DNA of 35,576 bases from a virus (IMGVR_UViG_3300029310_000030:1-35576), one strand, 5' to 3'. Numbered from the stretch's first letter, positions 5,085 through 35,576 are shown. Notes: generated from the sequence alone by a model not told the origin. Translations and numbers: made by a program.

Positions 5085-5098
5085 ATCTGATCCCTCCT

Positions 5099-8316: not shown

Positions 8317-8961
8317 TTACACTCCCATAAGCTTAATTTTGATTCGTGTGACGGTATCTGCCCGGGCCAGTCGCTCCGCTTCCATTTTCTCGATCACTCC
8401 GTCGGAAAATTTCCGGGCACTGATAGATGTGGCATCGTTGGCCGGGAGGCTCACGGCACTCACATCAAACAGCTTCTTGAATTTTGTGATGGTACGATAG
8501 ACGGTCAATGTTCCGGTTTCGTGGTCTTCCACGGATTCCCGTTTATCTTCTCCGACGATAAAGCCAAAGCTCATCTTGTCGGTGTACCCGCCTTTGATTT
8601 CACCATACAGCTGGCGACCGATTTCGGTTCCGCCCAGATCAGCGGTTACTTTCAGTCCGGTGGCATCCGTTGCCAGGGTCAGGGTGCCGTTTTTTGTTCT
8701 GGCAAAGACACGCCCGTTGTGATCATACTGGAAGATGACATCTGTCATGTCACAGTTGTCAAAAGCATGCGGGTCTACCTGCTCATAGATTTTGTACCGC
8801 TGGCCGTCGTAGAGCAGATACTGCTGGTTAAAGGTCGTGGCGTAGCCCTCGACGATCATTTTGCTATCGCCGTCATCCTGGTCATCCGCCCGGACTTCCA
8901 GCTGCATGGCACGGTACTCGCGCCCGCCGTCCAGCTTTTTCAAAAGCTTCTCATTTTCCAT
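8317..8961 (-). CDS. Prohead (HK97-family) maturation protease, 214 aa
   Basis: The segment ...MIVEGYATTFNQQY...HNGRVFART... resembles S78/U35 prohead proteases. It lies between the portal and capsid genes. Confidence 0.85.
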   Translation of the reverse strand: MENEKLLKKLDGGREYRAMQLEVRADDQDDGDSKMIVEGYATTFNQQYLLYDGQRYKIYEQVDPHAFDNCDMTDVIFQYDHNGRVFARTKNGTLTLATDATGLKVTADLGGTEIGRQLYGEIKGGYTDKMSFGFIVGEDKRESVEDHETGTLTVYRTITKFKKLFDVSAVSLPANDATSISARKFSDGVIEKMEAERLARADTVTRIKIKLMGV

Positions 8962-10162: not shown

Positions 10163-11801
10163 TTTTCAGCTGTTCACCGATTTCATCGGCCCATTTTTGG
10201 CGCACAGTCATAGCATCCAGCAGAGCAGCACCGCCATCAATATGCTCGTTGACGCTGATCTTGATGGGACGCATACGCCCGCTTTCGATATCCATTTTCA
10301 TGCCCATAGACAGCAGGTGCGCTTTCAGCAGGTCGTTATCACCAATGTCAAAAGCTCCATCTTTCATAAGCCCTTCGGTTTCCCGGATGACCGGGGTCAG
10401 GTTGAAGCCCTGAAAGACATCGTCCATCTGAAATCCGTAGGCATCCATGTCCTGTACAAGATACTGCGCCGTGTACCGGTCATAGCCGACTTTGAGCGGC
10501 AAAATCTCGTATTTTTCCACAAGCTCTGCAAACCATGCGAAGCAGTCGTGATAGTCCACGAAGTTACCGCCAGACAGCGTAAGAAGTCCACGCTGGACAT
10601 ATATGGGGTACGGCAAGCCATCCCGCGCAGTTGCCTCCTCCAGCTTTTCGCTTGGCATAAAAAAGTGAGCAAAAACATGAAGCCGTTTTTGCTTTTCGAT
10701 GACCACACAGCAGGCGGTCAAGTCTGTGGTACGGGAAAGGTCGATACCGCCTACACAGTAAGTAGAGCGGAAATCTTCCAGCTGCAGTGCATCTCCGCTG
10801 CATTTCTCCACGGCTTGCGTAGGTAGCCATGCCTGGGAGCTATTTTGTTTGATGTTGCAGTACTTTGTGATAAACTCAGCCTTTTTTGAGAGACTTCCCT
10901 CGGCCACGGCAATTTCTTCCAGCAGATAATCCACCGAAACTGAAACGCCAAGATTGGGGTTTGATTTGCGCAGCTCGTTGATGTCATTCCACTTGGCAAC
11001 ATCGTCGATCATGTACAGGAAAGGTGCTAGCCTTGCCTCTTTGGAATCGCCCAGCAAGAAACGAGTGCTTCGCTTGACCAACTCGTCATAGATGCCCTCG
11101 TTGATATATCCTGCCGTGCTGATACTCAGGATGATAGGCTGCCGTCTGGCACCCAAAGCGGATTTCATCACCTCATACTGTTTCAGGCCCTGATCTCCGG
11201 GCCAGGATGCGATCTCATCGCAGATGGTCAGCGAAGGGTTAAAGCCATCACTTTTCTTGGCGTTAAAGGCGATTTTTTTGATACTGGAGTTGGTGGCCTC
11301 CACATACAGGTCGGACTTGCGCGGCTTGATGCGGCAAGCCAGCTCAGGCTCATTGCTGGCGCTTTGCCAGAAAGCCTGGTAAACCAGGTCAGCCTGATCC
11401 AGCTTGGGAGCCACGCAGTACGTCTTTGCGCCATACTCTCCATCCATAAAAGTGCAGTAGGAGATGATGGCGCTGGCAAAGAGCGTTTTGCCGTTTTTGC
11501 GCGCCACCACTAGAATCACTTCTCGGAACTGCCGGTTTCCGGCACCGTCGAGAATCCCGAAGACCACCGACACAAAGGCCTTTTGCCACAGCTCCAGCTT
11601 GATGGTGTCAGATCGTCCTTCGCTGTGGTGGCAAAAGGTTTCAATGTATCGAATGGCTTTGGATGCCTTTTTCTGGTCAAAGAAAAAGGACTGCTTTTGC
11701 AGTCCATCAATGATGTACTTGTAAAAAAGACGGATCCACCGCCCTACGACGATGGTCCCGTCCTCGATTGCCTGATAGTAAGCCAGCAGGTAATTATCCA
11801 T
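10152..11801 (-). CDS. terL: Terminase large subunit, 549 aa
   Basis: Terminase_1-like N-terminus (MDNYLLAYYQAIEDGTIVVGRW...), a Walker-like VVARKNGKT motif and a nuclease C-terminal half. Confidence 0.9.
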   Translation of the reverse strand: MDNYLLAYYQAIEDGTIVVGRWIRLFYKYIIDGLQKQSFFFDQKKASKAIRYIETFCHHSEGRSDTIKLELWQKAFVSVVFGILDGAGNRQFREVILVVARKNGKTLFASAIISYCTFMDGEYGAKTYCVAPKLDQADLVYQAFWQSASNEPELACRIKPRKSDLYVEATNSSIKKIAFNAKKSDGFNPSLTICDEIASWPGDQGLKQYEVMKSALGARRQPIILSISTAGYINEGIYDELVKRSTRFLLGDSKEARLAPFLYMIDDVAKWNDINELRKSNPNLGVSVSVDYLLEEIAVAEGSLSKKAEFITKYCNIKQNSSQAWLPTQAVEKCSGDALQLEDFRSTYCVGGIDLSRTTDLTACCVVIEKQKRLHVFAHFFMPSEKLEEATARDGLPYPIYVQRGLLTLSGGNFVDYHDCFAWFAELVEKYEILPLKVGYDRYTAQYLVQDMDAYGFQMDDVFQGFNLTPVIRETEGLMKDGAFDIGDNDLLKAHLLSMGMKMDIESGRMRPIKISVNEHIDGGAALLDAMTVRQKWADEIGEQLKNEE

Positions 11802-12574: not shown

Positions 12575-12588
12575 ATCATATTCCTCGA

Positions 12589-12662
12589 TGCGCCCGGTGA
12601 GATTTGAACTCGCGGCCCATAGATTAAAAATCCATTGCTCTTCCATTCTGAGCTACAAGCGC
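12589..12662 (-). tRNA. tRNA-Lys(UUU), hand-folded, 74 nt, no encoded CCA
   Basis: Minus strand: GCGCTTG TA GCTC AGAATGGAA GAGC A ATGGA TTTTTAA TCTAT GGGCC GCGAG TTCAAAT CTCAC CGGGCGC A. Cloverleaf with two G-U pairs in the acceptor stem and one C-A mismatch in the T stem. Confidence 0.7.
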
Positions 12663-12758
12663 ATAAAATAAGCGGCCCGTTTGCGGTCGGGCCGCTGCAT
12701 CTGGAACTTTCGCGGCCAGATGCCCCGCTATCGTGCGCTCCCTGCAAAGGTTGCACGG

Positions 12759-14693: not shown

Positions 14694-16031
14694 TCACTTC
14701 AAATCAAGATATCTTATCAGGCTTTCCACTGCATCCGTGTAATTTTCCCAGCCGGTAGTAAAGAAATCACCTGACTTGTAGATGATGGCATAACGTACAT
14801 GCTCGCCCGGGGCAAAGCCCACAGCATCACGCTGGGTATCATCCAGCCGCCATAGATACGCCCCGCCGGGGAGTTCTTTCTTGTAAAAATCCAGCTTGAA
14901 CTTCCAAAGGTCACGGTCAAAAATCCAGCCGCCTTTTTCGTTCAATGTCTTTTCTGCCAGAGCCAGCAGAGTGGCCCGCCCACGGGGTTCAGGAGCTGAG
15001 TTTTTGCAAACATCCGAAACATTCTTTCCGGGTTCACTTTTTGCTTTTTGGGGCGCAATGCCTTTTTCAATGCAGAACCTCACAAACTTTGCCCAGGTAA
15101 ATACGTATTCACCTTTTCCCATTCCCCAAAAGCGTATCTTGTCTCGGTAAAAATCAACAAATCCTTTTTTCAAGCTTCGGCCACACATATCGCCCTTGCC
15201 TTTTGCAAGTGCTTCGCCCGTGAATTCAGGAGCAGACTTAACAAAATCCATCGAGCAGACCTCTTTTGCCGATTCCAGCACCCACTCAGGATACTCCGGT
15301 GCAGCTTTCGGTAACGTTTCCAGTGGTTTTTGCTCCGGTGCGGAGGAATCCGCGAATCCCGGCATGGATTCTGGGCTTTCCGCAGGCTCCTTAGGTGGAT
15401 TCTTAGCCGCAATGACATCTTGTGCCCGACGGTACGCTTCCATCAGTGTGATTTCTCCGGTTCGCAAAGACCGTTTCGTGTCATCTCCGCAGTTTTCCGC
15501 TATGGCATTCAGCCGGGCCGCCGCGCCGGTGCTCAGACCCAGGATGCGGCAAAGCTCATCCCTGACCTTTCCTTGCAGCTGGCCAAAGTGCTTTTTTCGG
15601 GTCAGCACTTCTTTCAAGGCCTCATACTGGGCCAGCCGTTCGCCATCGGTCAGGTCTCGGGCCGTGGCGTTGGCCGTGATCAGAGCTATTTTATCATCGT
15701 CCGCGTCCTTGCTTTCCCGGATGACGCACGGCAGCATATCAAAACCTTCCACGCCCTCCTTTGCAAGCTCCTCGCAGGCTGTCAAACGCCTCTCGCCGCC
15801 GATGAGCTTGTAACCGCCAAAGGGAAGTTCCACGACTTCCAGCGGTTGCCGGATCCCGTTTGCCCTGATATCTTCTTTCAGCCTGGATACATCCCCGATG
15901 ATGTAGATCCGATTATCCGGGTTCCTATGCAGTTGCCCGCGGTCAATCATAACCACCTGCATCTTCTGCCCCGCCGGGATGGCTGTTTTGCTCTGGGTGT
16001 TCAAAAGGCAATCCAATAATCCAGTGCTCAT
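14694..16031 (-). CDS. ParB/Srx N-terminal-domain protein with an unknown C-terminal extension, 445 aa
   Basis: ...HRNPDNRIY...GIRQPLEVVELPFGGYKLIGGERRLTACEEL... is a ParB-N motif, followed by an HTH-like segment, a Pro/Glu linker and a ~170-aa unknown domain. Confidence 0.7.
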   Translation of the reverse strand: MSTGLLDCLLNTQSKTAIPAGQKMQVVMIDRGQLHRNPDNRIYIIGDVSRLKEDIRANGIRQPLEVVELPFGGYKLIGGERRLTACEELAKEGVEGFDMLPCVIRESKDADDDKIALITANATARDLTDGERLAQYEALKEVLTRKKHFGQLQGKVRDELCRILGLSTGAAARLNAIAENCGDDTKRSLRTGEITLMEAYRRAQDVIAAKNPPKEPAESPESMPGFADSSAPEQKPLETLPKAAPEYPEWVLESAKEVCSMDFVKSAPEFTGEALAKGKGDMCGRSLKKGFVDFYRDKIRFWGMGKGEYVFTWAKFVRFCIEKGIAPQKAKSEPGKNVSDVCKNSAPEPRGRATLLALAEKTLNEKGGWIFDRDLWKFKLDFYKKELPGGAYLWRLDDTQRDAVGFAPGEHVRYAIIYKSGDFFTTGWENYTDAVESLIRYLDLK

Positions 16032-16309
16032 CGTACTTTCCTCCCGAGTTTTTCAGCAGCGTCAACGAGTATCATAACAGCCTCAGCAGTGAGCCATCCC
16101 TCCACGCCGCAATGACACAGTAGGTTTATCCCCATGGCTTCAAGATATCCAGCCTTTCCGCCATAGGAGTACGGCGTACACACCGCATCCCAGTACCATT
16201 TTTGAGCATCCGGAACGATGATCTGAACGCCGCCCTGAAATGCCCGGTCGTATATATGGGCAATGCCTTTTTCTGTAAGCATGGCATCCAGCTTATCCAT
16301 CTCAGTCAT
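16028..16309 (-). CDS. Hypothetical protein, 93 aa (between the parA and parB-like genes)
   Basis: ORF with overlapping start and stop on both sides (translationally coupled). Confidence 0.5.
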   Translation of the reverse strand: MTEMDKLDAMLTEKGIAHIYDRAFQGGVQIIVPDAQKWYWDAVCTPYSYGGKAGYLEAMGINLLCHCGVEGWLTAEAVMILVDAAEKLGRKVR

Positions 16310-17106
16310 CGTTTTTTACCCTCCACTGTTTTCTCCACGATATCTGCCAGCTGGCGATACTCGGTACTGGCCGGTACGCGGTAGCAGTAGATCGGCAGAT
16401 GTTCGGTCTTCGCTTCCTTGACCTTCACGCTGTAATCGATGCGCAGCACGCCGCCATCTTCAGCACGGAACACGGGATAATGCATCTTGTCCAGCTGATC
16501 CAGCTGGATGAGGACTTTTTCGGAGTAGGTACCCCGGGTGTACTTGGTGGCCAGGATACCCATGACCTTGATACCGGGATTGTAGTTTTCCCGGACAGCA
16601 TCCACCTGCTCCATGATCTCGAAGAGACCGTCAAAGGCCCACTCATCACAATCCACCGGCACGATGACCCAGTCAGCCGCCACAAGGGCGTTGATGGTGG
16701 CCATGTCGATATCAGGCGGGCAGTCCAGGATGCAGTAGTCGTATTTATCGGCAATGTCGTTCAGGGCTTTGCGCAGTCGGTTGTGCTGTGGCCGGGTTAC
16801 GTCCAGCATGACCTCACGGTTTGCCTTGATCATGCTCATGCTGCTGGGTGCGACATCCACATACTCAAAATCCGTTTTCTGGATGATATCGCTCAGGGTG
16901 ATGCTTTCCATCATCACCTCGGCCACGGTAGATATGCCCGGGTCAAACGTTTTGAAAAACTTGGAGGTGTTGGCCTGCTTGTCCAGATCCATTACCAGGA
17001 CGTGCCGGTGGTGCATCTGGGCAAGAATGCAGGCCAGGTTGCAGGCGGTAACGGATTTCCCGACCCCGCCTTTGAGGTTGATGATCGCGATTTTTTGCAT
17101 TTTCAT
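16306..17106 (-). CDS. parA: ParA/Soj-family partition ATPase, 266 aa
   Basis: Deviant Walker A motif IAIINLKGGVGKS and the ...VLVMDLDKQANTS... segment. Confidence 0.85.
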   Translation of the reverse strand: MKMQKIAIINLKGGVGKSVTACNLACILAQMHHRHVLVMDLDKQANTSKFFKTFDPGISTVAEVMMESITLSDIIQKTDFEYVDVAPSSMSMIKANREVMLDVTRPQHNRLRKALNDIADKYDYCILDCPPDIDMATINALVAADWVIVPVDCDEWAFDGLFEIMEQVDAVRENYNPGIKVMGILATKYTRGTYSEKVLIQLDQLDKMHYPVFRAEDGGVLRIDYSVKVKEAKTEHLPIYCYRVPASTEYRQLADIVEKTVEGKKR

Positions 17107-23394: not shown

Positions 23395-24189
23395 ATGTGG
23401 ATTTTGGCCATTGCCGCCGTCATTGTCTTTGTCATCGTTATGGCAAAGAAATCGAAGCCTGCAAAAGAGAGCTCTGCGCCCGTAAAGGCCGCTGATCCAG
23501 TGCCCGCTGCACCCAAAGAGCCGGAAAAAGAGACCGACCCGCGGTGGACGGAGACGCTGGATGTGCCCACCGATGGCAGGTATCCTAACGACTACCTTGC
23601 AGAGCTCAAGACCCAACAGGAAGAGCGGCAGGCCGCTGGCGCACACTACAAGTATGTTGTGCTGGACTTTGAGACCACCGGCCTGGTCAGCACTGAGGAC
23701 GACATTTTGCAGGTCGCCATCATCGACGACAAAGGAAACGTCCTTATCAATCAAAAGTGCAGGCCGGGAACGGTGACGGACTGGCAGGAAGCTGCCGAGA
23801 TCAATGACATCTGGCCAAAAGACGTGGCGTTCTGCCCAACCTTCGAGCAGATAGCAGTGTATGTGCAGGATATCCTTTCCCGGGCCACAAAAATTGTGGC
23901 ATATAATCGGGAGTTTGAGCAGGACTTTTTAGAGGGCTATGATATCGACCCCAAGCAGTACAAGTGGGCGCAGGATCCCATGAAGCTGGCCGCACAGTAC
24001 TACAACGTGCAGAAGGGCTCCACCCGCCGGGCAGTCAAGCTCTCCGTTATTTCAAAAATGCTGGGGTATAAGTACCACGCTCACGATGCGCTGGAAGATG
24101 TCAAAGCCACACGCTATGTATATGACACCCTGACCGAATGGGTCAAACGTCAGCGTGCAGAGGCCAAGGTGTCCAGAGTGGACACCTGA
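23395..24189 (+). CDS. Membrane-anchored DEDDh (DnaQ-like) 3'-5' exonuclease, 264 aa
   Basis: N-terminal TM helix MWILAIAAVIVFVIVMAKK. Exo motifs VVLDFETTG, AYNREFEQDFL and HDALEDV. Confidence 0.75.
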   Translation: MWILAIAAVIVFVIVMAKKSKPAKESSAPVKAADPVPAAPKEPEKETDPRWTETLDVPTDGRYPNDYLAELKTQQEERQAAGAHYKYVVLDFETTGLVSTEDDILQVAIIDDKGNVLINQKCRPGTVTDWQEAAEINDIWPKDVAFCPTFEQIAVYVQDILSRATKIVAYNREFEQDFLEGYDIDPKQYKWAQDPMKLAAQYYNVQKGSTRRAVKLSVISKMLGYKYHAHDALEDVKATRYVYDTLTEWVKRQRAEAKVSRVDT

Positions 24190-24524: not shown

Positions 24525-24635
24525 TTTTACCTCCTGCAACGATTTTATAACGTTGTTATATCATAGAGGAATGTAAAAAATCCATAACAGCTTTTGGCTC
24601 AAAATGGTAAAACATGGGAAAGTGAGGGTCGAATT

Positions 24636-25238
24636 ATGAATGAATATGAAAAAAGAGTGGCAAAGGTTTTAGAGATGGCACGATTCAAAGCCGGTATCAG
24701 TCAGGAAAGACTTGCCAAGCGGATGGGCGTAAGTCGTCCCACCATTGCGGGCAAAGAGCAAGGAACATCCCCCGCCTCACTGGCAGATATCATCAGCTGG
24801 TGCGTGTCGTGCGGGGTTCCGGCCAAACGCTATACCGATGCCTGTGTCCATCCTGGTCTGCTGGAGTACCTGGAAGACGGCATCGGCACAGAAGAAAAGC
24901 GGCAGATCTTACACGGGCTGGTTGACGATATGTCCAGCTATGAGGTCGATGGATGGCTGTATCTCTACTATGGCGACCACGGCTCAGATCCACTGGGCGT
25001 GCTGACAGAGGTGCTGGCCAACTTGCACACTCCGCTGCGCGACCGTGTGACGATCGTAAACGCTATAATCGGGCATTATAAGATGGCGCAATCGACAGAC
25101 ACAGACCCGGACCCAAACGGGACGCAGCCGGTCATGCCGATTGTGCAGCAAGCCAGTCAGTGCGGTACTGAAGCTGCCCGCCGCGGTAGTGACGTTTACT
25201 CAGCACAGTTGGAGGTAGATAAAGATGGCAAGGGCTAA
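24636..25238 (+). CDS. XRE-family HTH protein with a C-terminal domain, about 200 aa (start trimmed to MNEYEK...)
   Basis: HTH segment ISQERLAKRMGVSRPTIAGKEQG. Its 3' end overlaps the integrase start. Confidence 0.6.
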   Translation: MNEYEKRVAKVLEMARFKAGISQERLAKRMGVSRPTIAGKEQGTSPASLADIISWCVSCGVPAKRYTDACVHPGLLEYLEDGIGTEEKRQILHGLVDDMSSYEVDGWLYLYYGDHGSDPLGVLTEVLANLHTPLRDRVTIVNAIIGHYKMAQSTDTDPDPNGTQPVMPIVQQASQCGTEAARRGSDVYSAQLEVDKDGKG

Positions 25239-26403
25239 AAAGGGAATCCGGCCAGACGGTCTGTATCAGTGCCGCCGGGTCATGCCGGATGGAAAAAAGA
25301 AGTCCTTTTACGGTCACAGCAAAACGGAAGCCGAGGGAAAGTATAAAGAAGCTCTGAAAAAGTGGGAAGAGGAACACCCACAAAAAGGTAAAAGCAACAC
25401 GGTAACTTACAGGCAGGCGGTTGCGGCCTACCATGACTACATCACCGGGCCTGCAAAGCCGGTGCGCCGCGGTACAATCACCTCATATCAAAAGCACCTG
25501 GGCCCCACCAGCGAGTACTTCGGGGATGCCTTGATGGAGGACATCGACGCTCAAAAGGTAAAGGAGTATCTGGACATCCTTGCCGCAGAGGGTAAAGCAA
25601 AAAAGACAGCCATCAACGCGCGATCAGTTATCAGCTGCGTTTTTGAGTATTGGTGCAACTACCTGCACGGCACTGGGAATCCGGTGCGGAATGCTCATAT
25701 CCCCAAAAAGATGCCGGTAACGGAGCGGCAGGAGCCCACAAAAGAGCAGCGGCAGCTGATTGAAGCTCACCCAGAGGGATGCGGTTTCTGGGCGGCACTC
25801 TTCGAGTATACTGGTATGCGCATGGGCGAGGCCAACGGCCTGCGCTGGAAAAACGTTGACTTTGCCGCCGGAAAGATCACGCCAGAGCAAGCTATGCCCT
25901 GGGATAAAAATCACCCCTACAAAGAAGAGCTGAAAACGCTCAAGGCCTACCGGTCAATCCCCATCCTCAACAAATTTCGGCCCATGCTGGAAGAGGCTGC
26001 AAAAGGCCACGATCCAGATGACTATGTCCTGTCGGGAGAGAAAGAACCCCTCAGCCAGTCCCAGTACGAGTGGCGCTGGGCGATTTACTGCCGGGGCCTG
26101 GGTCTGGCCGTCAAGCAGGAGAAGCACTCCAAAATCAAGGGCCAGCCAGGAAAAATCCGAACATACTACAAATGGAAAGCACTTGTCACGGCGCACCAGT
26201 TCCGGCACCTTTATGCGTCGAACCTCTTTTATGCTCAAGTGCCGGACAAGGTGGCGCAAAAGCTTTTGGGCCACGCAGACATCTCTACCACCCGCCGCAT
26301 TTATCAGCATCTGCGTGAGGATGAGGACATGAAATACACCGACATGCTCAACGCATATATCGACGGGCAGGATAAAATCCCAAGTGATAATGTTGGTAAA
26401 TGA
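25225..26403 (+). CDS. int: Tyrosine integrase, 392 aa
   Basis: Catalytic-type motifs TGMRMGEANGLRW, HQFRH and LLGHADISTTRRIY. Lies next to attP. Confidence 0.9.
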   Translation: MARAKKGIRPDGLYQCRRVMPDGKKKSFYGHSKTEAEGKYKEALKKWEEEHPQKGKSNTVTYRQAVAAYHDYITGPAKPVRRGTITSYQKHLGPTSEYFGDALMEDIDAQKVKEYLDILAAEGKAKKTAINARSVISCVFEYWCNYLHGTGNPVRNAHIPKKMPVTERQEPTKEQRQLIEAHPEGCGFWAALFEYTGMRMGEANGLRWKNVDFAAGKITPEQAMPWDKNHPYKEELKTLKAYRSIPILNKFRPMLEEAAKGHDPDDYVLSGEKEPLSQSQYEWRWAIYCRGLGLAVKQEKHSKIKGQPGKIRTYYKWKALVTAHQFRHLYASNLFYAQVPDKVAQKLLGHADISTTRRIYQHLREDEDMKYTDMLNAYIDGQDKIPSDNVGK

Positions 26404-26445: not shown

Positions 26446-26472
26446 GGGGTTCGAGTCCCCTCCCTCGCACCA
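26446..26472 (+). other. attP core candidate: 3' fragment of a Leu-type tRNA (T arm plus acceptor 3' strand plus CCA)
   Basis: GGGGTTCGAGTCCCCTCCCTCGCACCA resembles the 3' end of bacterial tRNA-Leu (...GGGGGTTCAAGTCCCCCCCCTCGCACCA in E. coli). No 5' half of the tRNA is present. It lies 43 bp after the int stop. Confidence 0.65.
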
Positions 26473-26477
26473 CATGA

Positions 26478-26527
26478 AAAATAGCGTAGAATCTTGTTTT
26501 TGAAGATTCTACGCTATTTTCTTTTAC
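26478..26527. terminator. Bidirectional rho-independent terminator
   Basis: 15-bp perfect stem ATAGCGTAGAATCTT / AAGATTCTACGCTAT, flanked by a T-run on the plus strand and an A-run (T-run on the minus strand). Confidence 0.7.
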
Positions 26528-26539
26528 TTTTTCACTCGC

Positions 26540-26605
26540 GGATACTAACAGATACTCACGGATACTAACGCATTTTAACGGTTCAAAGTTGGTAAAAAGT
26601 TGGTA
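26540..26605. repeat. Putative integrase arm-type sites: GGATACTAAC x2 plus GATACTCAC, and AGTTGGTA x2 (TTGGTAA also at 26393 and 26404)
   Basis: Direct repeats read at 26540-26549, 26551-26559, 26560-26569, 26587-26594 and 26598-26605. TTGGTAA copies lie on the other side of the core. Confidence 0.5.
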
Positions 26606-26611
26606 GTGCCA

Positions 26612-27115
26612 TTATTTATCTGCCGGGATGGTCTCCCAGTAGGCAACAAGCTTGTCATCTACTGCATCATCGTCGTGGAGGAAAGCTGCTGCCATATCGG
26701 CATAAAAAGGCGGTGTATCCACGCCATGCTCTCTTGCTACGTCGCAGTAATCGCTGTACATCATGCACAGGGCAGCCCAAAAGTCGATAGAGTTGCAGCT
26801 GATTTTCCGCTGTGTCATAAGCTGGAAAGCCCCCTCATAGGCCCAGTGCGGGCCGGTGGTACCGTCTGCATTTTTCATGGAAGCCGTCCACTTTTTGGCC
26901 TGATCCATAGTCAGGTGCCCCGTACTGGTGGTGGACATAGCTTTTTCTTTACTGACGTGAGCCGTGCCCTCGGCAGGTGTAAGAGCGTCCAGACCGCAGA
27001 TGCTTTCTATCAGCTTGTGGGAGTTTTCGAGGTCACACACGCAAAAGGTATCTTTTGCGGCGATATCATCCAGCTCTTTCCACATCCGCTCACGCAGCTT
27101 GACCAGATGGCTCAT
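26612..27115 (-). CDS. Cassette gene E: hypothetical protein, 167 aa
   Basis: Protein-like ORF (…NADGTTGPHWAYEGAF…MMYSDYCDVAREHGV…). Preceded by a G8 tract acting as an SD-like element. Confidence 0.6.
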   Translation of the reverse strand: MSHLVKLRERMWKELDDIAAKDTFCVCDLENSHKLIESICGLDALTPAEGTAHVSKEKAMSTTSTGHLTMDQAKKWTASMKNADGTTGPHWAYEGAFQLMTQRKISCNSIDFWAALCMMYSDYCDVAREHGVDTPPFYADMAAAFLHDDDAVDDKLVAYWETIPADK

Positions 27116-27130
27116 AAGAGCACCCCCCCC

Positions 27131-27532
27131 TTACAGCTTCTCCACGGCCACGGCCATATTGTTTACCACGGCAGCAGTGCCGGTCAGCAGGAAGCTCAAG
27201 ATAGAGCTTTCACAGCCGCACGGATTGCGCACCAGGAAAGTCAGCGCCAGATTGGTCGGTGCGGCTGCAGCGGCCACAGTCTGAGAAGCGGTAGCACCGA
27301 TGACAGCCACGCCGTCCTTCTGGCCGGTCAGGGTCACGGTACCCGCTGCCGTGGGGGCCAGTGTAGCAGACACGGTCACATGGTAGTAGCCCTGGCCCAG
27401 CAGGGTGATGGTGTTGCCGTCCTGCCGAATGTTGCAGCCAAACCGCCGGGAAGTGGTGCCGATAGGGATAATATCGTTTACCGCCACGGTCTGGGCCGAG
27501 GTGTTGGCGGTATAAATTGCGGATTTAGACAT
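27131..27532 (-). CDS. Cassette gene D: BclA-C / DUF3992 (BxpB/Ena)-like beta-sandwich protein, 133 aa
   Basis: Alternating beta-strand pattern (...GNTITLLGQGYYHVTVSATLAPTAAGTVTLTGQKDGVAVIGA...LTFLVRN...VVNNMAVAVEKL) recalls TNF/C1q-like exosporium domains. AAGGAGA RBS. Confidence 0.45.
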   Translation of the reverse strand: MSKSAIYTANTSAQTVAVNDIIPIGTTSRRFGCNIRQDGNTITLLGQGYYHVTVSATLAPTAAGTVTLTGQKDGVAVIGATASQTVAAAAAPTNLALTFLVRNPCGCESSILSFLLTGTAAVVNNMAVAVEKL

Positions 27533-27608
27533 AAAAAATCTCCTTTCTTATATAAAAGGCGGAGCAGCCTTTGCCGCCCCGCCAAACCTCGCCAAAAGGG
27601 CGTATGTG

Positions 27609-28250
27609 TTAGATGTTGCCGCAGCCATTATTGCAGCCGCAGAAGGGGCTCGGGCCCGCATTGTAGGAGTAGCCGTTGGGGTACTTCACAACGCCGTACA
27701 TCTGGGAAGCCAGCTCCAGCTGGCTGATCCTCTGATTCTGGGCCGCAATGGTCTGCTCATACTGCTGCTTCTGGAGCTCGGCAAACTTCGCGTCGATGTT
27801 GGAGTTGATCGCGCAGGTCTGCTTGTCCATCTGGGCTGCCAGGTTGGCAGTCGCCAGCCGGTTGTCGCAGCAGCACTGTGCGAGCTGTGCCTGGATGCCG
27901 TTGCCGGTCTGCAGGATGGTGGTGTTGGTGCCTGCCTGAGCCAGAGCAACTTCTTTGCCCAGCTGGCCGATGCTTCCCTGCATCTCATAGCCGAGATTAC
28001 AGATACCGTTGCCGACGTTGGTCAGCCGGTCATTCAGCTGGCCGAACTGCTGGCCATAGAGGATCTCCTGCTGGCTTGCTGCAGTGGCATACTGGCCGTA
28101 CTCGCCGGTGCGGTTGCCCCACATGCCGTTACCGCCCATAAAGACGAACAGGAAGAGGATGATGATCCACCACGCGCCGCCCTGGCCCCAGCCGTCGTTA
28201 TCGTTGCCACGGGTCACGGCAGCGATATCGCTCAAAGACATGTTATCCAT
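27609..28250 (-). CDS. Cassette gene C: N-terminal TM helix, Q-rich coiled coil, Cys-rich C-terminus, 213 aa
   Basis: TM helix AWWIIILFLFVFMGG. Heptad-like Q/L-rich middle. Eight Cys, including CCC and a terminal CGCNNGCGNI. Confidence 0.6.
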   Translation of the reverse strand: MDNMSLSDIAAVTRGNDNDGWGQGGAWWIIILFLFVFMGGNGMWGNRTGEYGQYATAASQQEILYGQQFGQLNDRLTNVGNGICNLGYEMQGSIGQLGKEVALAQAGTNTTILQTGNGIQAQLAQCCCDNRLATANLAAQMDKQTCAINSNIDAKFAELQKQQYEQTIAAQNQRISQLELASQMYGVVKYPNGYSYNAGPSPFCGCNNGCGNI

Positions 28251-28310
28251 AGTTGATTTCCTTTCTTGCGAATAGTGAAATTATTTCAAATCGTGGCCAC
28301 GATTTTTCGA

Positions 28311-28538
28311 TTACTTGATGAAAGGCATGATCTGCTTTGCCATCGCTTCCAGCTGGTGGTACTGCTCATCTGACATCTTACCGGACTTGCGCAGCTCTTC
28401 CACCTGCTTTTGGGGATCTCCCTGGAAAGCGGAGCGGAACTGCTGAAACTGCCGGAGAAGCTGCATCATGTTGCCCAGAGGGCCGGGAAAGCCGGACGGC
28501 GCACTGCCACCCAGAAACTGCATCAAAGGATTTGCCAT
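28311..28538 (-). CDS. Cassette gene B: small Q-rich helical protein, 75 aa
   Basis: AAGGAGGG RBS inside the end of gene A. Sequence MANPLMQFLGG...LLRQFQQFRSAFQGDPQKQVEELRKSGKMSDEQY... Confidence 0.55.
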   Translation of the reverse strand: MANPLMQFLGGSAPSGFPGPLGNMMQLLRQFQQFRSAFQGDPQKQVEELRKSGKMSDEQYHQLEAMAKQIMPFIK

Positions 28539-28541
28539 ACC

Positions 28542-28991
28542 TTAACCCTCCTTTGCCCGTGCGGGCCTTGCAGGAGCCGCCGGGGCCGTCTGATACTGCG
28601 CCATCACGCGCTCCACCTCGGCCTTTACGGCAGCCTGTATCTTCTGATCTGCCTGCGCAGAGGTCAGATACTGCGTCTCTGCCGGTGTCTGCATCGCTGC
28701 CGGATCGATCTTTGTCAGGCGGTAGTATTCGCCGGACGCATAGCCCATCGTGTCTGCCTTTTTGACAGCCATGACAGGCTCGTTTTGCACCATGATCCAG
28801 CGCGTTTCGCCGGGCTGCACCATGACTTTGTCCACATCCGCGATTGTCGGCACCATCGTGAAGGGGCTTTGTCCCCCGCTCTGTGGAGCGGCCTGCTGGG
28901 CCATTTGCTGTTGATACTGGCCTTGCCCAAAGCCCATCGGTGGCATCCCACTGTAAGGGCTCGATTGCCAGCCGCCAAAAGGATATGCCAT
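28542..28991 (-). CDS. Cassette gene A: protein with a G/Q/P/M-rich N-terminus and a globular C-terminal part, about 149 aa (start trimmed to MAYPFGGW...)
   Basis: AAAGGACGGGGAAG RBS upstream of the ATG at 28991. The upstream 56 codons of the ORF-track call look non-coding. Confidence 0.55.
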   Translation of the reverse strand: MAYPFGGWQSSPYSGMPPMGFGQGQYQQQMAQQAAPQSGGQSPFTMVPTIADVDKVMVQPGETRWIMVQNEPVMAVKKADTMGYASGEYYRLTKIDPAAMQTPAETQYLTSAQADQKIQAAVKAEVERVMAQYQTAPAAPARPARAKEG

Positions 28992-29096
28992 AAAGCTTCC
29001 CCGTCCTTTCTTGATCTTGTAGCACCAGTATACCTCTCCCGTATATCCTGAGTGCGCAAGGGGAGTGCAAAGAGTGCGCAAATTTTCAAAAAAGTC

Positions 29097-29125
29097 TTGA
29101 CGTTTACACGCAGTGCGTGTATAAT
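29097..29125 (+). promoter_or_regulatory. Near-consensus sigma-70-type promoter (TTGACG - 17 nt - TATAAT)
   Basis: -35 box at 29097-29102 and -10 box at 29120-29125, about 50 nt upstream of the acidic-protein ATG. Confidence 0.65.
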
Positions 29126-29173
29126 AAGGACAGTGAAAGACACAAGCACGCAGCAACATGGAGGCACAAAATT

Positions 29174-29386
29174 ATGAGAAACGCTATTGAAATCGCCGCT
29201 GACATCCGCAAGTCCGATGTCTGGGATTACGAGCTGTGCACCGAGCTGTGCAAGGCAGCTGACATGGAAGAAGAGTGGGAAGCTGCATCCGCTGGCGATT
29301 ACGACTGGAACGACCCGAATCACGGCCCCTCGTTTGAAGAAGTCGTTGAAGCCGCCGCCGAAAAACTGGGCGTTGAGATCTACTAA
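29174..29386 (+). CDS. Highly acidic small protein, 70 aa (start trimmed to MRNAIEI...)
   Basis: GGAGG RBS. 19 Asp+Glu versus 5 Arg+Lys, counted by hand. Confidence 0.6.
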   Translation: MRNAIEIAADIRKSDVWDYELCTELCKAADMEEEWEAASAGDYDWNDPNHGPSFEEVVEAAAEKLGVEIY

Positions 29387-29390
29387 ATAA

Positions 29391-29436
29391 AAAATCCCCC
29401 GCCCGATGCTTGTTACACCGAACGGGGGATTTTGTG
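29391..29436 (+). terminator. Rho-independent terminator after the acidic-protein gene
   Basis: Stem AAAATCCCCCG / CGGGGGATTTT followed by a T-run. Confidence 0.6.
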
Positions 29437-29496
29437 AAAGACACCTCACACGGAGGTGTGCAACTATCCTATCACACGAAAGAAAGGAAGTCAATC

Positions 29497-29814
29497 ATGT
29501 ATACCAAAGCAGAGCTTTTTTCAATGGCCGCAGAGCAGCCGAAGGAAATCTTTGTCAACAACATTACTCTGAGCGTACCGGATGACACTTCTGACTGCGT
29601 TGATCTGGACGCTGAGAAGGATAGGCTGTCCTCTATCTGGGAGCTGGCGCACTTGTCCATGCGGGAACTGGTCTCACGCACCGGAATGTCGCAGACAGCT
29701 TTTGCAAAGCAGGCGGGCATCCCGCTGCGATCCGTGCAGGACTGGTGCTGTGAAAAGCGTGCGTGTCCGGCATACGTCCGGTTTTTGCTAGCTGAGCATT
29801 ATAATCTGCTATAA
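29497..29814 (+). CDS. HTH DNA-binding protein, about 105 aa (start trimmed to MYTKAELF...)
   Basis: GAAAGGAAG RBS. C-terminal HTH ...MSQTAFAKQAGIPLRSVQDWCCEKRACPAYV... Confidence 0.55.
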   Translation: MYTKAELFSMAAEQPKEIFVNNITLSVPDDTSDCVDLDAEKDRLSSIWELAHLSMRELVSRTGMSQTAFAKQAGIPLRSVQDWCCEKRACPAYVRFLLAEHYNLL

Positions 29815-29972
29815 CCTTAACTACGATTGTAGTGTGGGCTGCGGTTTCCGTCATGGAAGCTTTTGCATGATGACCCGGCCCGCACTGGCAGCCACCAGCA
29901 GAAGCGGCCGCACATGCGACGTGGACACTGGCACCACTCCTGGTGACGCATAAAGTGAAGGAAGTGTAAGAG

Positions 29973-30584
29973 ATGCCGCCGAAGAAAAATCACATCGGTG
30001 AAAAACACGGGACGCTTGAAGTCATCGCAGAGGCCCCATCAAGAAAAAGTAAGTCTGGAAACTTGCTAACCTGCTGGAAAGTGCGATGTTCTCATTGCGG
30101 ATGCGAAAAAATCATGCTTTGGGGAAGCATCCGGAACGCAAAATCATGCGGGTGCATCAAAGTGACAGATGTGCCAAAGGAATGCACCTGTAAAAGATGC
30201 GGAAAATCTTTTACAGGAAATATGTTTACCGTTTACTGCCCAGAATGCAAAGAAGTCATAAAAGAGTTGCACGGCGTAAAAGGGAATTCGTGTTTTTCTT
30301 TTGAAACAGTCTGTATTGACTGCGGCGCGCATTTTGTTGCAGGCTCAAAAAAAGCTCTCCGATGCCCTGAGTGTAGAAAAAAAGCCAAAAGAGAAAGCAA
30401 TCGTCTTTGTGCTCAGAGACGAAAAAACGGGACAGCAAGAAGGCTTGGAGAAGCATACTCGTGTGCTGACTGTGGGAAGCCTTTTATCTTAAAAAATGGA
30501 TTTCAAAAGTACTGTCCAGACTGTGAGCCGAAGCACAGCATACAATCGTGGAAAGAGTATAAGGAAAAATACGCAAAAAAGTAA
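29973..30584 (+). CDS. Multi-zinc-ribbon protein, 203 aa
   Basis: Four CxxC...CxxC pairs (CSHCGC..SCGC; CKRCG..CPEC; CIDCG..CPEC; CADCG..CPDC). Basic composition. The DNA segment is A/T-richer than its surroundings. Confidence 0.6.
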   Translation: MPPKKNHIGEKHGTLEVIAEAPSRKSKSGNLLTCWKVRCSHCGCEKIMLWGSIRNAKSCGCIKVTDVPKECTCKRCGKSFTGNMFTVYCPECKEVIKELHGVKGNSCFSFETVCIDCGAHFVAGSKKALRCPECRKKAKRESNRLCAQRRKNGTARRLGEAYSCADCGKPFILKNGFQKYCPDCEPKHSIQSWKEYKEKYAKK

Positions 30585-30631
30585 AAATCCCCGGTGCTCC
30601 GCATGGATGGAGTACCGGGGATTTATTTTTA
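30584..30631. terminator. Bidirectional rho-independent terminator between convergent genes
   Basis: Stem AAAATCCCCGGT / ACCGGGGATTT followed by ATTTTTAT. Confidence 0.65.
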
Positions 30632-31025
30632 TGTGTTTGATTCAAGTGCTGAAAGTACCACTTTCAGCCGGTAGCATACCGCCCTACGGCTGTAATGCGT
30701 CTGTGCTGCAATGTCCGGCAACGGAAGCCGCTCAACGTACCGCAAAAGAGCTATCTTACGGTCAACCCTCCCAAGCGGTGCGTTTTTGATGGCGGCGGTC
30801 ATCTGCTGTCGGTCAAGCCCTTGCAGCACAGCGGGCAGCACTACACGAGCCGCCGCCACAGGCAGCACCGAGCCAAAAAGGCTGCGGCAGCTGTCCGGAG
30901 TTGCGCTTTTCCGCGCGTCTCGTTGCGCGATTCGCGCTTTTCAAGCGTTTTGCGCCATGCCGATCGAGAAAAATCGGATAAGCTCGCTGATCGTAAAAGT
31001 ATCGGTCGTATGTAGTGCTTGCCAT
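30629..31025 (-). pseudogene. Sigma-70 region-4 / ArpU-like regulator split across two overlapping frames (30813..31025 and 30629..30868)
   Basis: The C-terminal frame encodes ...DRKIALLRYVERLPLPDIAAQTHYSRRAVCYRLK... (r4-like HTH) but has no RBS or ATG of its own. The N-terminal frame starts at an ATG and overlaps it in the adjacent frame. Confidence 0.45.
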
Positions 31026-31035
31026 GATATCCTCC

Positions 31036-31374
31036 TTACTGCCTTTCCAGTGCCGCTTTCATGCGGTCAAAGAAAAACTGAATCACGGTGCCAATGGTCT
31101 CATCGGTGATGGCCCACGAGATGAATTTGCCCCACTTGCTGGCGCTGAGGGCCGTGCGGAGCATCTGCGCCACCCACGCCTTGCGCTCTGCGCCTCTCTT
31201 GGTGCCCTGAATCTCGTGCTCTGCCTGCTCGATCAGGTCAAGGACAGTGCCCTTGACAGCGGCACCATAGCCCAGCCGGATGCAGCCCAGTGCGTAGAAC
31301 GCAAAGCCGCCCAGCATGAGCACAAGGGCCAGAGGGGCAGGAAGTGCGGTCAAAAGGTTACGAATCGCTTCCAT
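31036..31374 (-). CDS. LL-H-type holin-like membrane protein, 112 aa
   Basis: N-terminal TM helix (LALVLMLGGFAFYALG) followed by a helical ...KAWVAQMLRTAL... segment. Lies in the lysis module. Confidence 0.5.
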   Translation of the reverse strand: MEAIRNLLTALPAPLALVLMLGGFAFYALGCIRLGYGAAVKGTVLDLIEQAEHEIQGTKRGAERKAWVAQMLRTALSASKWGKFISWAITDETIGTVIQFFFDRMKAALERQ

Positions 31375-31392: not shown

Positions 31393-31710
31393 TCAGTCGC
31401 AGATGGGCAGCGCTTTGGCCCGGTTATACAGCTCCGTGCCGGTTCCGTTGCCGCCCAGTGCGTGATAGCTTTTGTAAAGATATTCGAGGTTTTTCAGGCC
31501 ACCGGTGTCAATGCTGCCCTGCTTGATGTAGAAGGTGCAGGACTGGTATAGGCGGTCGTGCATGATGGCCAGCAGGCCTTCTTTCACGGCCTTGCGCTCC
31601 TCTTCCTGTGCCTTGATACGCTTTGACAGACCACGATAGGTAGCGGCCAGAACGCCGGTGATGCCGGTAAAAATGAGTTCTCCGATGTGCTTCAGGATAA
31701 ACTCCCACAT
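31393..31710 (-). CDS. Putative holin / lysis membrane protein, 105 aa
   Basis: N-terminal TM helix (IGELIFTGITGVLAATY). Immediately downstream of the endolysin. Confidence 0.45.
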   Translation of the reverse strand: MWEFILKHIGELIFTGITGVLAATYRGLSKRIKAQEEERKAVKEGLLAIMHDRLYQSCTFYIKQGSIDTGGLKNLEYLYKSYHALGGNGTGTELYNRAKALPICD

Positions 31711-31714
31711 GGGC

Positions 31715-32497
31715 TTATACCTCCCGGAGCCGGGTCAGCCCCTTTGTCTTGATGATTTTCGGGTAGTTGAGGGTGGTCACGTTGAGGTCTACGTTGCCAG
31801 AAATGCCCGGCACGCTGCCTTTGCTGGTGTGCTGGTGGGCGTTGTACTTGAAATCCACCTTGGGGGTCTTACCCGTGTAGTCAGCCAACCATACATCCCA
31901 TCGCCCGGCAAGCCTTGCCATGTCCAGATGGACGTTGGCGTAGCTCGTGTAGGTGTACAGCTGGGCGTAAAAACCCATTTTCTCCACCTGTTCCAGCGCG
32001 TAGGCGGTGAGGTTGGTGAGGTCGAGGGTGCTCATGGGTTTGAGCTTGTTTTCCTCCACGTCCACCGCGAGGGGCATGCTAAGCTCCTTGCCGTAGACCG
32101 CCTGCCGCACAAGAGCAAGCTCTGCATCGGCCATCGCTTCGCTGGTGGCGTAGGTGTAGTAGTACACGCCCACGTCCAGACCGGCAGCCCGGGCGTTGCG
32201 GTAGTTTGCTTCAAAGGCCGGGTCGATGTACAGGCCGTCTGCCCGCTTGGAGAACTTTTTGTTGGTGGACACCGTCTTGAGCATGGCTCCCTTGTAACCC
32301 GCCACCGCCACCTGTGCCCAGTCAATTTCGCCCTGATACCGGCTTACGTCAATGTACCGGTAGGGCGGCTCACCCGTCCACCCGGTCACGGTGTCCACAG
32401 TGGGCACGTCCGGTGCAGGGGCAGGTTTTTCCTTGTCGGCGCTGTCACCGGCAGCGTGGGAGAGAGCAGAGAAGATATCCCGCAGGAAGTCAAGCAT
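31715..32497 (-). CDS. GH25 muramidase endolysin, about 260 aa (start at MLDFL...)
   Basis: ...YIDVSRYQGEIDWAQV...GVYYYTYA...AVDVEE... are GH25 signatures. GAGGTGG RBS. Confidence 0.85.
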   Translation of the reverse strand: MLDFLRDIFSALSHAAGDSADKEKPAPAPDVPTVDTVTGWTGEPPYRYIDVSRYQGEIDWAQVAVAGYKGAMLKTVSTNKKFSKRADGLYIDPAFEANYRNARAAGLDVGVYYYTYATSEAMADAELALVRQAVYGKELSMPLAVDVEENKLKPMSTLDLTNLTAYALEQVEKMGFYAQLYTYTSYANVHLDMARLAGRWDVWLADYTGKTPKVDFKYNAHQHTSKGSVPGISGNVDLNVTTLNYPKIIKTKGLTRLREV

Positions 32498-32633
32498 CAC
32501 TTTCCACCTCATAAAATCCCTCCTCCGTCAGCTTTTTCATCACGGCATCCTTGTACCGGTCAGGCACGTTATCGATGGTAAAAGCGCCGTCAAAGCGGTG
32601 CAGTTTGATTTGTGTCACATAAAACAAAACCAT
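32490..32633 (-). CDS. XkdX/CD1375-like small protein, 47 aa (internal start of ORF 32490..32861)
   Basis: MVLFYVTQIKLHRFDGAFTIDNVPDRYKDAVMKKL... matches the small-protein pattern seen upstream of Firmicute phage lysis genes. GGAGGA RBS. Confidence 0.5.
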   Translation of the reverse strand: MVLFYVTQIKLHRFDGAFTIDNVPDRYKDAVMKKLTEEGFYEVESDA

Positions 32634-35306: not shown

Positions 35307-35548
35307 TTGAGCTCACCTCCGCTCTGGATCACGGCCAACTGCTCCGGGGTCAGAGGGCTGTATACCAGCTTTTCTCCGTCCCACACATAGTGCGAGCCGC
35401 CATCCTCCCAGTCCTCCGGGAACTCATCGAAGACCATGCAGTTGTCTGGGAGAGGGTTCGGGATTACTTCTTCAACGCCCCATCCGCCACTGTAAATGCG
35501 GCCATCGGAGCACACCTTGCACATAAATTTACAGCCGGGTACTTTCAT
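35300..35548 (-). CDS. Hypothetical protein, 82 aa (between the Tal-like and Dit-like genes; its start lies inside the terminal repeat)
   Basis: GAGGTGAAGGA RBS. The start at 35548 corresponds to position 71, i.e. 12 nt after the Tal-like stop at 84. Confidence 0.5.
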   Translation of the reverse strand: MKVPGCKFMCKVCSDGRIYSGGWGVEEVIPNPLPDNCMVFDEFPEDWEDGGSHYVWDGEKLVYSPLTPEQLAVIQSGGELKC

Positions 35549-35576
35549 CTGTCCTTCACCTCACATAAAACCGTAT
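35478..35576. repeat. Terminal direct repeat, right copy (identical to 1-99)
   Basis: Exact identity with 1-99. Confidence 0.95.

Follow-up and report, generated by a model that had tools for sequence, protein, structure and literature searches.

The phage genome IMGVR_UViG_3300029310_000030 (35,576 nucleotides [nt]; the window, i.e., the whole stretch of DNA analysed) carries five small minus-strand genes at 26612–28991, here termed A to E, and this cassette is very probably one copy of a widespread, uncharacterized, and phage-specific operon. With the same high confidence, we describe the full operon as running in the order of a helix-turn-helix (HTH)/sigma-region-4-like gene, A, B, a palindrome, C, a terminator-like hairpin, D, and an exchangeable helical protein. 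As to function, we propose at a probability of roughly 0.4 that the products form a complex that is anchored in the membrane, regulates itself, and acts at a late stage of infection, in egress or the control of lysis. The genes lie at 28542–28991 (A; 149 amino acids [aa]), 28311–28538 (B; 75 aa), 27609–28250 (C; 213 aa), 27131–27532 (D; 133 aa), and 26612–27115 (E; 167 aa), all on the minus strand, with gaps of 3, 60, 76, and 15 nt between A-B, B-C, C-D, and D-E, respectively. A first-pass annotation of this DNA had placed the five open reading frames (ORFs) at these coordinates and had listed the G/Q/P/M-rich N-terminus of A, the Gly/Trp-flanked segment, eight Cys residues, CCC, and CGCNNGCGNI of C, and the PCGC of D; all were recovered in our analysis.

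Conservation and distribution of the module

A search with D returned 73 viral loci from IMG/VR, and a search with the C alignment returned 18 genome loci; across about 100 loci examined, the order A-(B)-C-D was kept in every one with flanking DNA, down to 25% identity of C, with B homologues situated between A and C in 76 loci. This conserved synteny bears out the first-pass view of a genuine co-functional cassette, for which co-occurrence in other genomes had been put forward as a test; no copy of the cassette was found outside a phage context among the loci examined. The same cassette occurs on a siphovirus backbone (the window) and on myovirus backbones (loci L074–76, with sheath and baseplate genes).

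With respect to hosts, a close relative of the window C (P0151, 96% identical) falls within the same 90%-identity cluster as WP_156075420.1, encoded on a 1.8-Mb contig of Faecalibacterium prausnitzii. The cultured Butyrivibrio virus Ceridwen (host Butyrivibrio fibrisolvens) has A, B, C, and D immediately behind the endolysin gene, and among the Clostridium perfringens phages with a C homologue, XP41-N3 encodes A, B, and C together with a ferritin-like gene. Furthermore, many crAss-like phages and Bacteroides phage C3_41T2LP have C-like genes, with a DUF7841 gene (the family of window E; see below) beside or near each of them, the two being adjacent in crAss-like cr4_1 and in C3_41T2LP. Between phages of different phyla, the identity of C amounts to 30–35%. 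Depositors have labelled these C-like genes "spike protein" and "viral fiber," with the crAss homologues carrying "spike protein/glycoprotein." In crAss-like cr4_1 (L098 3599–4576 and 5032–5598), translation table 11 gives in-frame stops in annotated genes, which fits the stop-codon recoding known from some crAss-like phages; because of these stops, the cr4_1 C-like gene shows as two ORFs.

Proteins of the C family were also detected in two viruses assigned to the Methanomassiliicoccales, namely L103 (Caudoviricetes sp. vir215; 4641–5522) and L104 (vir335; 4632–5555), where depositors had annotated them as phrog_16490. These archaeal-virus proteins have a duplicated CCC and a long acidic N-terminus, with no C-terminal Cys tail, no D gene, and no A-like neighbour. 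Judged from sequence, C thus appears to be a phage membrane-protein family common to viruses of two domains. Both L103 (2915–3949) and L111 (crAss-like cr52_1; 244–1269) have a reverse-transcriptase gene located upstream of the C-like gene at a distance of a few genes, which may be a coincidence.

The commonest site for the module is directly downstream of the holin and endolysin genes, with or without an integrase gene following. This arrangement was seen in L074–76, L102, L107, L108, L109, and L110 (from precomputed Pfam matches), in Ceridwen, and in L090 and L091 (from ORF sequences), while C-like genes adjoin lysis genes in crAss-like cr4_1, cr52_1, and cr273_1. At some loci, there is no integrase within the DNA examined, and the cassette continues the series of tail and lysis genes without a break. 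In one of the myovirus relatives (L076 4681–6462), a 593-aa collagen-repeat protein (PF01391) is encoded between the holin-like genes and the cassette.

Protein C, the core of the module

C is the core of the module and matches the profile of phrog_16490 (E 4.1e-16), a family with no assigned function. Its sequence comprises an acidic N-terminus, a hydrophobic core of 13–15 residues with Gly/Trp flanks, and an N/Q-rich helical region of ~150 aa with a 3.6-residue periodicity. Among its eight Cys residues are those of an invariant CCC and of the C-terminal CGCNNGCGNI; the tail reads PFCGCNNGCGNI and follows the family-invariant pattern PFCGC..C.N.I. In 10 diverse homologues, the N-terminus is likewise acidic, and an Arg is conserved directly behind the hydrophobic core. 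One search returned 3894 homologues of C, and a HMMER search of 1.84 billion cluster representatives yielded 874 representatives of 50%-identity clusters; the homologues are always stand-alone proteins, of about 190–270 aa.

When compared with Pfam, PHROGs, and NCBIfam, C matched no family of holins or spanins, and no homologue was found on PLSDB plasmids. Two other identities for the protein were considered and rejected: a double-glycine leader at the N-terminus, for which the spacing does not fit when the sequence is read, and an i-spanin, given monoderm hosts and the lack of a lipoprotein partner.

Protein D and its relation to spore-surface proteins

D is predicted to be a TNF/C1q-like jelly roll of the type found in the BclA C-terminal domain (CTD) and in ExsFA (BxpB). 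At the level of sequence, the Pfam family BclA_C (PF18573) matches D with an E value of 7.3e-5 and 23.1 bits, below the gathering score of 38, and covers profile positions 2–120 of 128; for some close homologues (P0055, P0074) a precomputed PF18573 match exists, flagged elsewhere as "weak." Searching PDB with phmmer, residues 13–115 of D were matched to BclA structures 3twi (E 2.6e-6), 2z5w (1e-5), and 1wck (1.3e-4). An AlphaFold2 (AF2) model of D contains 11 strands, with a predicted local distance difference test (pLDDT) score of 92 and a predicted template-modelling score (pTM) of 0.84. Its best superpositions, at template-modelling (TM) scores of 0.78–0.83, are with the BclA CTD (1wck, 0.79), the F-BclA CTD (9h38, 0.80), ExsFA (7r5i, 0.80), and BxpB (8d02, 0.83); C1q follows at 0.75, the matches listed by Foldseek all have a probability of 1.00, and TNF ligands rank after the Bacillus proteins. 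Other fold matches include PDB 9h3d, an ExsF-peptide anchoring complex, and the fibres of cyanophages A-1(L) and A4.

The family resemblance claimed in the first-pass annotation thus stands with regard to the BclA-C/BxpB jelly roll but not with regard to DUF3992/Ena proteins. Neither DUF3992 nor DUF4183 gave a Pfam match at E ≤ 1 for A–E or for the D-position proteins of other phages, and Ena proteins are absent from the top 50 fold matches of D. There are also no collagen GXX repeats and no N-terminal exosporium-targeting region in D, the β domain starting at once; an NCBIfam GXX_rpt_CTERM match spans only the part corresponding to the C-terminal domain and is far below cutoff. D is accordingly a distant member of the BclA_C/TNF-C1q superfamily, but is neither a BclA-type glycoprotein nor an Ena subunit.

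The D gene always lies directly after C, and the Cys motifs are kept in both proteins across homologues; in D, the motif is CGC (PCGC in the window protein). D-position proteins of other loci often open with Cys-rich peptides (MTCNRRCNCCNRR, MACNCNC, MACGNTRNNKTCRNKSC), as in XP41-N3 (L097 4475–4852), L088 (6513–7058), L080, L085, and L086; the window D has no N-terminal Cys and no Cys-rich extension.

An extracellular or spore-surface appendage of the exosporium or Ena kind, delivered by lysogenic conversion, had been proposed in the first-pass annotation. The best structural relatives of D are indeed all Bacillus exosporium or appendage proteins (BclA, F-BclA, ExsFA, BxpB), and some distant D homologues have N-terminal Cys-rich extensions (MACNC...), which recall the Cys-rich connectors through which Ena fibres are coupled to BclA-like tips (PMC12357932). 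The spore-surface reading nonetheless fails on host range and is largely refuted: close homologues of C are found in F. prausnitzii, the cassette itself in a B. fibrisolvens phage, C and DUF7841 in Bacteroidales phages, and C in archaeal viruses. None of Faecalibacterium, Butyrivibrio, the Bacteroidales, or the methanogens is known to sporulate. Together with the missing collagen repeat, exosporium-targeting N-terminus, and DUF3992 or DUF4183 match in D, and with the restriction of the copies found to phages, this makes a spore appendage barely credible.

Proteins A, B, and E

The A ORF, first of the conserved structural genes in the operon, could be extended to 29159, but gene callers give an identical 149-aa product on 100 contigs (P0245). 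The protein has a Q/G/P/M-rich disordered N-terminus, a small β-rich core (residues ~43–100; pLDDT 84–91 in the AF2 model), and a C-terminal helix (111–134). A profile search returned 1928 homologues, among which the 120 listed have no Pfam domain, and A itself has no Pfam or PDB sequence match and is assigned to no family. Its model found no fold match in PDB (best E 0.1); structural matches in BFVD are nearly all unnamed proteins of uncultured gut phages.

B is a small Q/M-rich protein, presumably helical from its sequence, that matches the profile of phrog_22984 (E 9.1e-15), another family without an assigned function; it could be aligned with counterparts from C. perfringens phage XP41-N3, Ceridwen, and Dulem virus 35. 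It may resemble the STI1/SGTA-like Met/Gln-rich chaperones. For the A, B, and E families, PDB profile searches gave chance-level matches only, and Pfam and NCBIfam scans returned nothing for A, B, or C. In PADLOC, no defence system matched A–E, the sole hit being ZorA on the coiled-coil region of C (E 0.048). No signal peptides were found in A, B, D, or E, nor was a lipobox seen in these four on reading the sequences.

E, which the first-pass annotation had left simply as an unknown protein, belongs to DUF7841 (PF25223; 82 bits versus a cutoff of 25.2, E 5e-23, residues 63–160), the domain being preceded by a variable N-terminal stretch of ~60 aa. Its position is that of an exchangeable fifth gene: across 89 loci, the gene after D encodes a rubrerythrin-like protein of ~100 aa in 57, a ferritin-like protein of ~188 aa in 16, and DUF7841 in 13 (including the window). 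No similarity among these three kinds of fifth gene was detected with hhalign, and the rubrerythrin assignment is sub-threshold (Rubrerythrin E 2e-4).

The identity of the fifth gene invites the thought that the operon is a redox or metal module of strict-anaerobe phages, in which the Cys clusters of C and D would bind metal or sense oxidation, the rubrerythrin-like, ferritin-like, or DUF7841 partner would supply or remove iron or peroxide, and exposure to oxygen would thereby be coupled to a phage decision. The hosts seen, which span three phyla and two domains, are all gut anaerobes, and the invariant CCC and CGC..GCG motifs would lie in a probably cytoplasmic, reducing location; moreover, a rubrerythrin-like or ferritin-like gene directly follows D at 73 of the 89 loci. 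The ferritin-like assignment is nevertheless sub-threshold (the Rubrerythrin E value above), the 188-aa form displays no obvious ExxH motif on reading, the window has DUF7841 instead, and the restriction to gut anaerobes may only mirror the sources of sequence data and gene exchange. We consequently consider this explanation improbable.

Regulatory elements of the operon

Two internal signals noted in the first-pass annotation are real. The first is a perfect 18-bp palindrome, AAATCGTGGCCACGATTT, located just past the B stop codon and ~35 nt ahead of the C start, at 28288–28305, i.e., 3 nt from the previously given 28291–28308. An equivalent palindrome follows B in 17 distinct lineages with differing sequences; in seven of the nine pairs, the two central ones among them, both partners have changed, and 89% of cells are paired versus at most 43% in slid controls. 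Because the innermost two pairs covary and yet could not pair in an RNA hairpin, we read the element as a DNA palindrome (a protein-binding site) and not as an RNA stem, making it a candidate operator or internal regulatory site. On reading, an A/T-rich −10-like element follows the palindrome in both sequence groups.

The second signal is a minus-strand terminator-like hairpin with a T-run between C and D (27549–27583; GGCGGGGCGGC-AAAG-GCTGCTCCGCC), immediately before the D ribosome-binding site. Its stem (27558–27583) has 11 pairs, nine of them G-C, followed by TTTTATATAA. In 47 of 53 distinct spacers of at least 30 nt, a hairpin and T-run are present, in 28 different sequences, compared to 1.7% of shuffles; that the structure is kept across so many sequences indicates that structure, and not sequence, is under selection. 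The hairpin is probably an attenuator or an mRNA 3′-end stabilizer. No Rfam family matched it at threshold, with "DUF2815 RNA" remaining sub-threshold (24.5 versus 41.2 bits). The graded or regulated expression earlier suggested for the cassette is thus backed by conservation of both signals across lineages.

Upstream of A, two minus-strand direct repeats of TTGCGCACTC with TTGCACTCC between them (29050–29081; 60–90 nt upstream) are candidate regulator-binding sites. A scan of the minus strand at 28992–29116 returned no consensus sigma-70 promoter. At 41 loci, a small HTH/sigma-region-4-like gene immediately precedes A. In the window, a minus-strand ORF of 79 aa resembling sigma-70 region 4/HTH proteins (30629–30868) instead closes the late (lysis) operon and is separated from A by a plus-strand insert (29117–30584). 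It matches Pfam Sigma70_r4_2 at a sub-threshold E value of 1.2e-3 and phrog_36 at 2e-4, and hhalign against the upstream HTH family gives a P value of 4.9e-4 with a probability of 32%; a weak case can be made from these scores that it is a possible counterpart of the HTH gene preceding A elsewhere.

Proposed function

In our proposed mechanism, C would insert in the cytoplasmic membrane of the infected cell via its short Gly/Trp-flanked hydrophobic segment, leaving the acidic N-terminus outside and the long helical Cys-rich part in the cytoplasm. There, A, B, D, and E would meet it, as they have no signal peptides. D would form a BclA/ExsF-type trimer that docks on C, with the CCC and CGC..GCG of C and the CGC of D allowing a covalent or metal-mediated coupling, and A and B may assist C as soluble partners or as chaperones. 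The level of C would be set by the palindrome ahead of its gene and the attenuator behind it, such that less D and E than C would be made. We thus infer a C–D complex, coupled by Cys motifs, that is made late and attached to the membrane on its inner side; consistent with such coupling, the archaeal-virus C homologues lack the Cys tail as well as a D gene. At the end of the lytic cycle, this complex would act on the membrane to control or assist egress; in the window phage, the cassette may have become a separate transcription unit next to the phage attachment site (attP).

That the module recurs next to lysis genes, in phages from two phyla of bacteria, suggests that it acts at the membrane in egress or in the timing of egress; this step is weak, hence the probability of about 0.4 given above. 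Several observations weigh against such a role. Unrelated accessory genes also gather at the end of late operons, so position is a poor guide, and the window phage already has two holin-like genes, meaning that C is not needed as a holin. In the window, convergent plus-strand genes and terminators separate the cassette from the late operon and insulate it, which fits expression from a prophage equally well. Elsewhere, the cassette lies between minor-capsid and scaffold/major-capsid genes (L088, Dulem virus 35) or in the early region (XP41-N3), and the C-like gene of C3_41T2LP is near recombination genes. The complex is proposed from synteny; the topology of C is uncertain, as its hydrophobic core is short (13–15 residues) and its charge bias modest. 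With hhalign, D is unlike the D-position β proteins of XP41-N3, cr4_1, and C3_41T2LP, and A is unlike cr4 gp18 and C3_34. Since no A or D similarity emerged, we claim only C and DUF7841 as common to the Bacteroidales phages.

The placement among head genes in L088 and Dulem virus 35 also raises the option of a virion-associated component or a particle released by lysis: the products would be made late and assembled in the cytoplasm, either as ejection or decoration proteins, or as a receptor-binding D with a membrane-inserting C that acts on other cells. Without signal peptides, A, B, D, and E would have lysis as their only evident exit, and TNF-like heads do occur on phage fibres (see the cyanophage A-1(L) and A4 fold matches). 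Likewise, C is reminiscent of viral fusion proteins in its Gly-rich hydrophobic N-terminus, long helical region, and Cys cluster, and the crAss homologues bear the label "spike protein/glycoprotein," which we treat as a lead only. The module is, however, outside the structural block in most genomes, no homologue is reported as a virion protein in the literature searched, and the 133-aa D has no capsid or tail attachment domain. On balance, a virion or particle component is distinctly unlikely.

Taking the egress proposal to its furthest form, C would be the effector of a previously unrecognized viral membrane apparatus, common to tailed viruses that infect gut Bacillota, Bacteroidota, and methanogenic archaea. 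It would be a helical, Cys-rich protein with a single span, which at egress remodels the host membrane or ruptures it. The BclA/ExsF-like trimer D and the partners A and B would cap and control it in Bacillota phages, where a dedicated regulator, operator, and attenuator would tune it. In this complete form, the proposal is speculative, and we think it unlikely.

Layout of the window genome

The window is the complete, circularly closed genome of a temperate siphovirus (~35.5 kb), the first 99 nt (1–99) recurring exactly at 35478–35576; this terminal overlap, a mark of circular assembly, means that the window is not an integrated prophage, and the "prophage end" placement of the cassette is inferred from attP. 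On the minus strand are genes for a tail protein (84–2096), the tape measure protein (2100–4463), the major head protein (7127–8314), the portal (8951–10162), and the large terminase (10152–11801). Across the circular junction, the same strand bears tail-fibre genes and the endolysin gene (31715–32512), after which come two small ORFs (31393–31710 and 31036–31374) that we judged holin-like from sequence, their PHROG matches carrying no function.

An XRE-type repressor gene (24594–25238) and a plus-strand tyrosine integrase gene (25225–26403; phrog_1) read toward the attP gap. The likely attP core (26446–26472), a sequence resembling a tRNA 3′ end, GGGGTTCGAGTCCCCTCCCTCGCACCA, adjoins the integrase gene; ARAGORN called no tRNA there. 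Two copies each of the direct repeats GGATACTAAC and AAGTTGGTA, at 26540–26569 and 26586–26605, are possibly arm-type integrase sites. The cassette and the converging integrase gene are closed by an 18-pair bidirectional terminator-like hairpin (26478–26520) with an A-run and a T-run at its flanks. Toward the lysis module, the plus-strand block of small genes (29117–30584) is bracketed by strong bidirectional terminator-like hairpins at 29391–29433 and 30585–30624, the former of which overlaps the listed TTG start (29410) of a 134-aa ORF, so the true start is probably further downstream. This layout between attP/integrase and the lysis module is as first described.

The block of opposite-strand genes that separates the cassette from the lysis genes differs among relatives (window 29117–30584, plus strand; L109 3003–4637; L110 2509–4143). 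In close relatives, it holds an AcrVA2-like gene beside a 203-aa gene of the same size as a Zn-ribbon-rich window ORF (29973–30584); from its gene content, the block looks like an anti-defence or accessory-gene hotspot. Elsewhere in the window, ParB-like and ParA-like genes (14694–16031 and 16306–17106, minus strand) are present in what is an integrase-bearing phage, such that plasmid-like prophage maintenance may be possible. A DnaQ-like exonuclease domain (phrog_192) follows an N-terminal hydrophobic segment and a Pro/Ala/Lys-rich linker in an unusual arrangement at 23395–24189 (plus strand), and a tRNA-Lys (anticodon TTT) is encoded at 12587–12663 (minus strand).

This layout is also where a device for lysogenic conversion or superinfection exclusion finds its footing. 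Expressed in the lysogen from its own promoter, the cassette would have C anchor a stalk-and-head structure (with D as the head) at the envelope, blocking other phages or altering the surface. The window cassette does sit beside attP as a separate transcription unit, insulated from the late operon by terminators; the same integrase-adjacent layout recurs in L074, L076, L108, L109, and L110, and the neighbouring opposite-strand block, with its AcrVA2-like gene in relatives, marks an accessory-gene region. Exclusion proteins are, in addition, typically membrane-anchored. The position of a moron, as the first-pass annotation called it, is therefore apt insofar as the cassette lies between the lysis genes and the attachment site with a terminator of its own, but the module is not confined to temperate phages, being found in Ceridwen and in crAss-like phages. 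For Ceridwen, only lytic growth was seen and no integrase was found by its authors (PMC7372960). Since such non-temperate phages, as well as loci without an integrase in the DNA examined, keep the module, and two lineages have it in the head-gene block, lysogenic conversion cannot be its general logic. Five to six conserved genes, with C at 30–35% identity across phyla, would be unusual for fast-evolving, host-specific exclusion genes, and for D, A, and B, which are without signal peptides, display at the surface would require an unknown export route. We hence regard exclusion or conversion as unlikely, and retain as our preferred reading a membrane-anchored complex acting in egress or lysis control.

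Significance and comparison with known systems

Most gut-phage genes have no known function; in the present case, five of them turn out to make up a single operon that is deeply conserved and regulated internally. A great many human-gut phage genomes carry the module, which crosses morphotypes, with C crossing host phyla and domains. Lysis is poorly understood in Faecalibacterium, Lachnospiraceae, Bacteroidales, and methanogen hosts; should an action in egress or at the membrane prove true, the module would constitute a new component of the lysis toolkit in their phages, and phages would be using the BclA/ExsF spore-surface fold in a non-spore setting. Phage Ceridwen on B. fibrisolvens DSM 3071 offers a tractable system in which to test this. 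Existing entries for phrog_16490 (C), phrog_22984 (B), and DUF7841 (E) catalogue these families without function and omit their joint operon with a BclA-like protein and regulatory elements. In the literature searched (on DUF7841, prophage BclA, and crAss annotations), the module is not described as a system, in line with the first-pass remark that no phage system of this kind is known to have been described.

The closest relatives of D by fold are the BclA CTD and ExsFA/BxpB of the Bacillus cereus-group exosporium (1wck, 8d02, 7r5i, 9h3d; TM 0.78–0.83), with sequence similarity to the BclA CTD (E 2.6e-6, 24% identity) and the size of that isolated domain. As ExsF-type trimers dock the terminal peptides of Bacillus fibre proteins, they provide a plausible model for D with C. 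Unlike BclA and ExsFA, D is a bare domain, with no collagen-like stalk and no exosporium-targeting N-terminus, and it has a conserved CGC motif; it is also phage-encoded, in non-sporulating hosts, with a predicted membrane protein as partner.

With the Ena appendages (S- and L-Ena, DUF3992; F-Ena, DUF4183), the cassette has in common the idea of small β-sandwich subunits and Cys-rich connectors that yield covalent assemblies (PMC12357932), and the Cys-rich starts of D-position proteins in other phages recall the Cys-containing N-terminal connectors of Ena fibres. The cassette differs in having no DUF3992 or DUF4183 match and non-spore-forming hosts.

Compared with T4 holin T and its antiholins RI/RIII, and with the lambda Rz i-spanin, C is alike in plan only: it shares a short N-terminal segment, one hydrophobic span, and a helical domain of ~150–170 aa with cysteines, as well as a gene beside the holin and endolysin and soluble partner proteins. 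In contrast to holins and spanins, C has no family match and no lipoprotein partner, its hosts are mostly monoderm and do not need a spanin, and the window has holin-like genes of its own. With the prophage morons or exclusion genes that lie between the lysis module and the attachment site (for example, Ltp and Sie2009), the cassette shares its position, a terminator of its own, and a membrane-anchored product; it differs from them in being multi-gene and deeply conserved, in having its own regulator, and in occurring in non-temperate phages as well. We therefore rate the module as lying outside the known kinds of phage systems, one that may ultimately prove to be a variant of lysis control or of exclusion.

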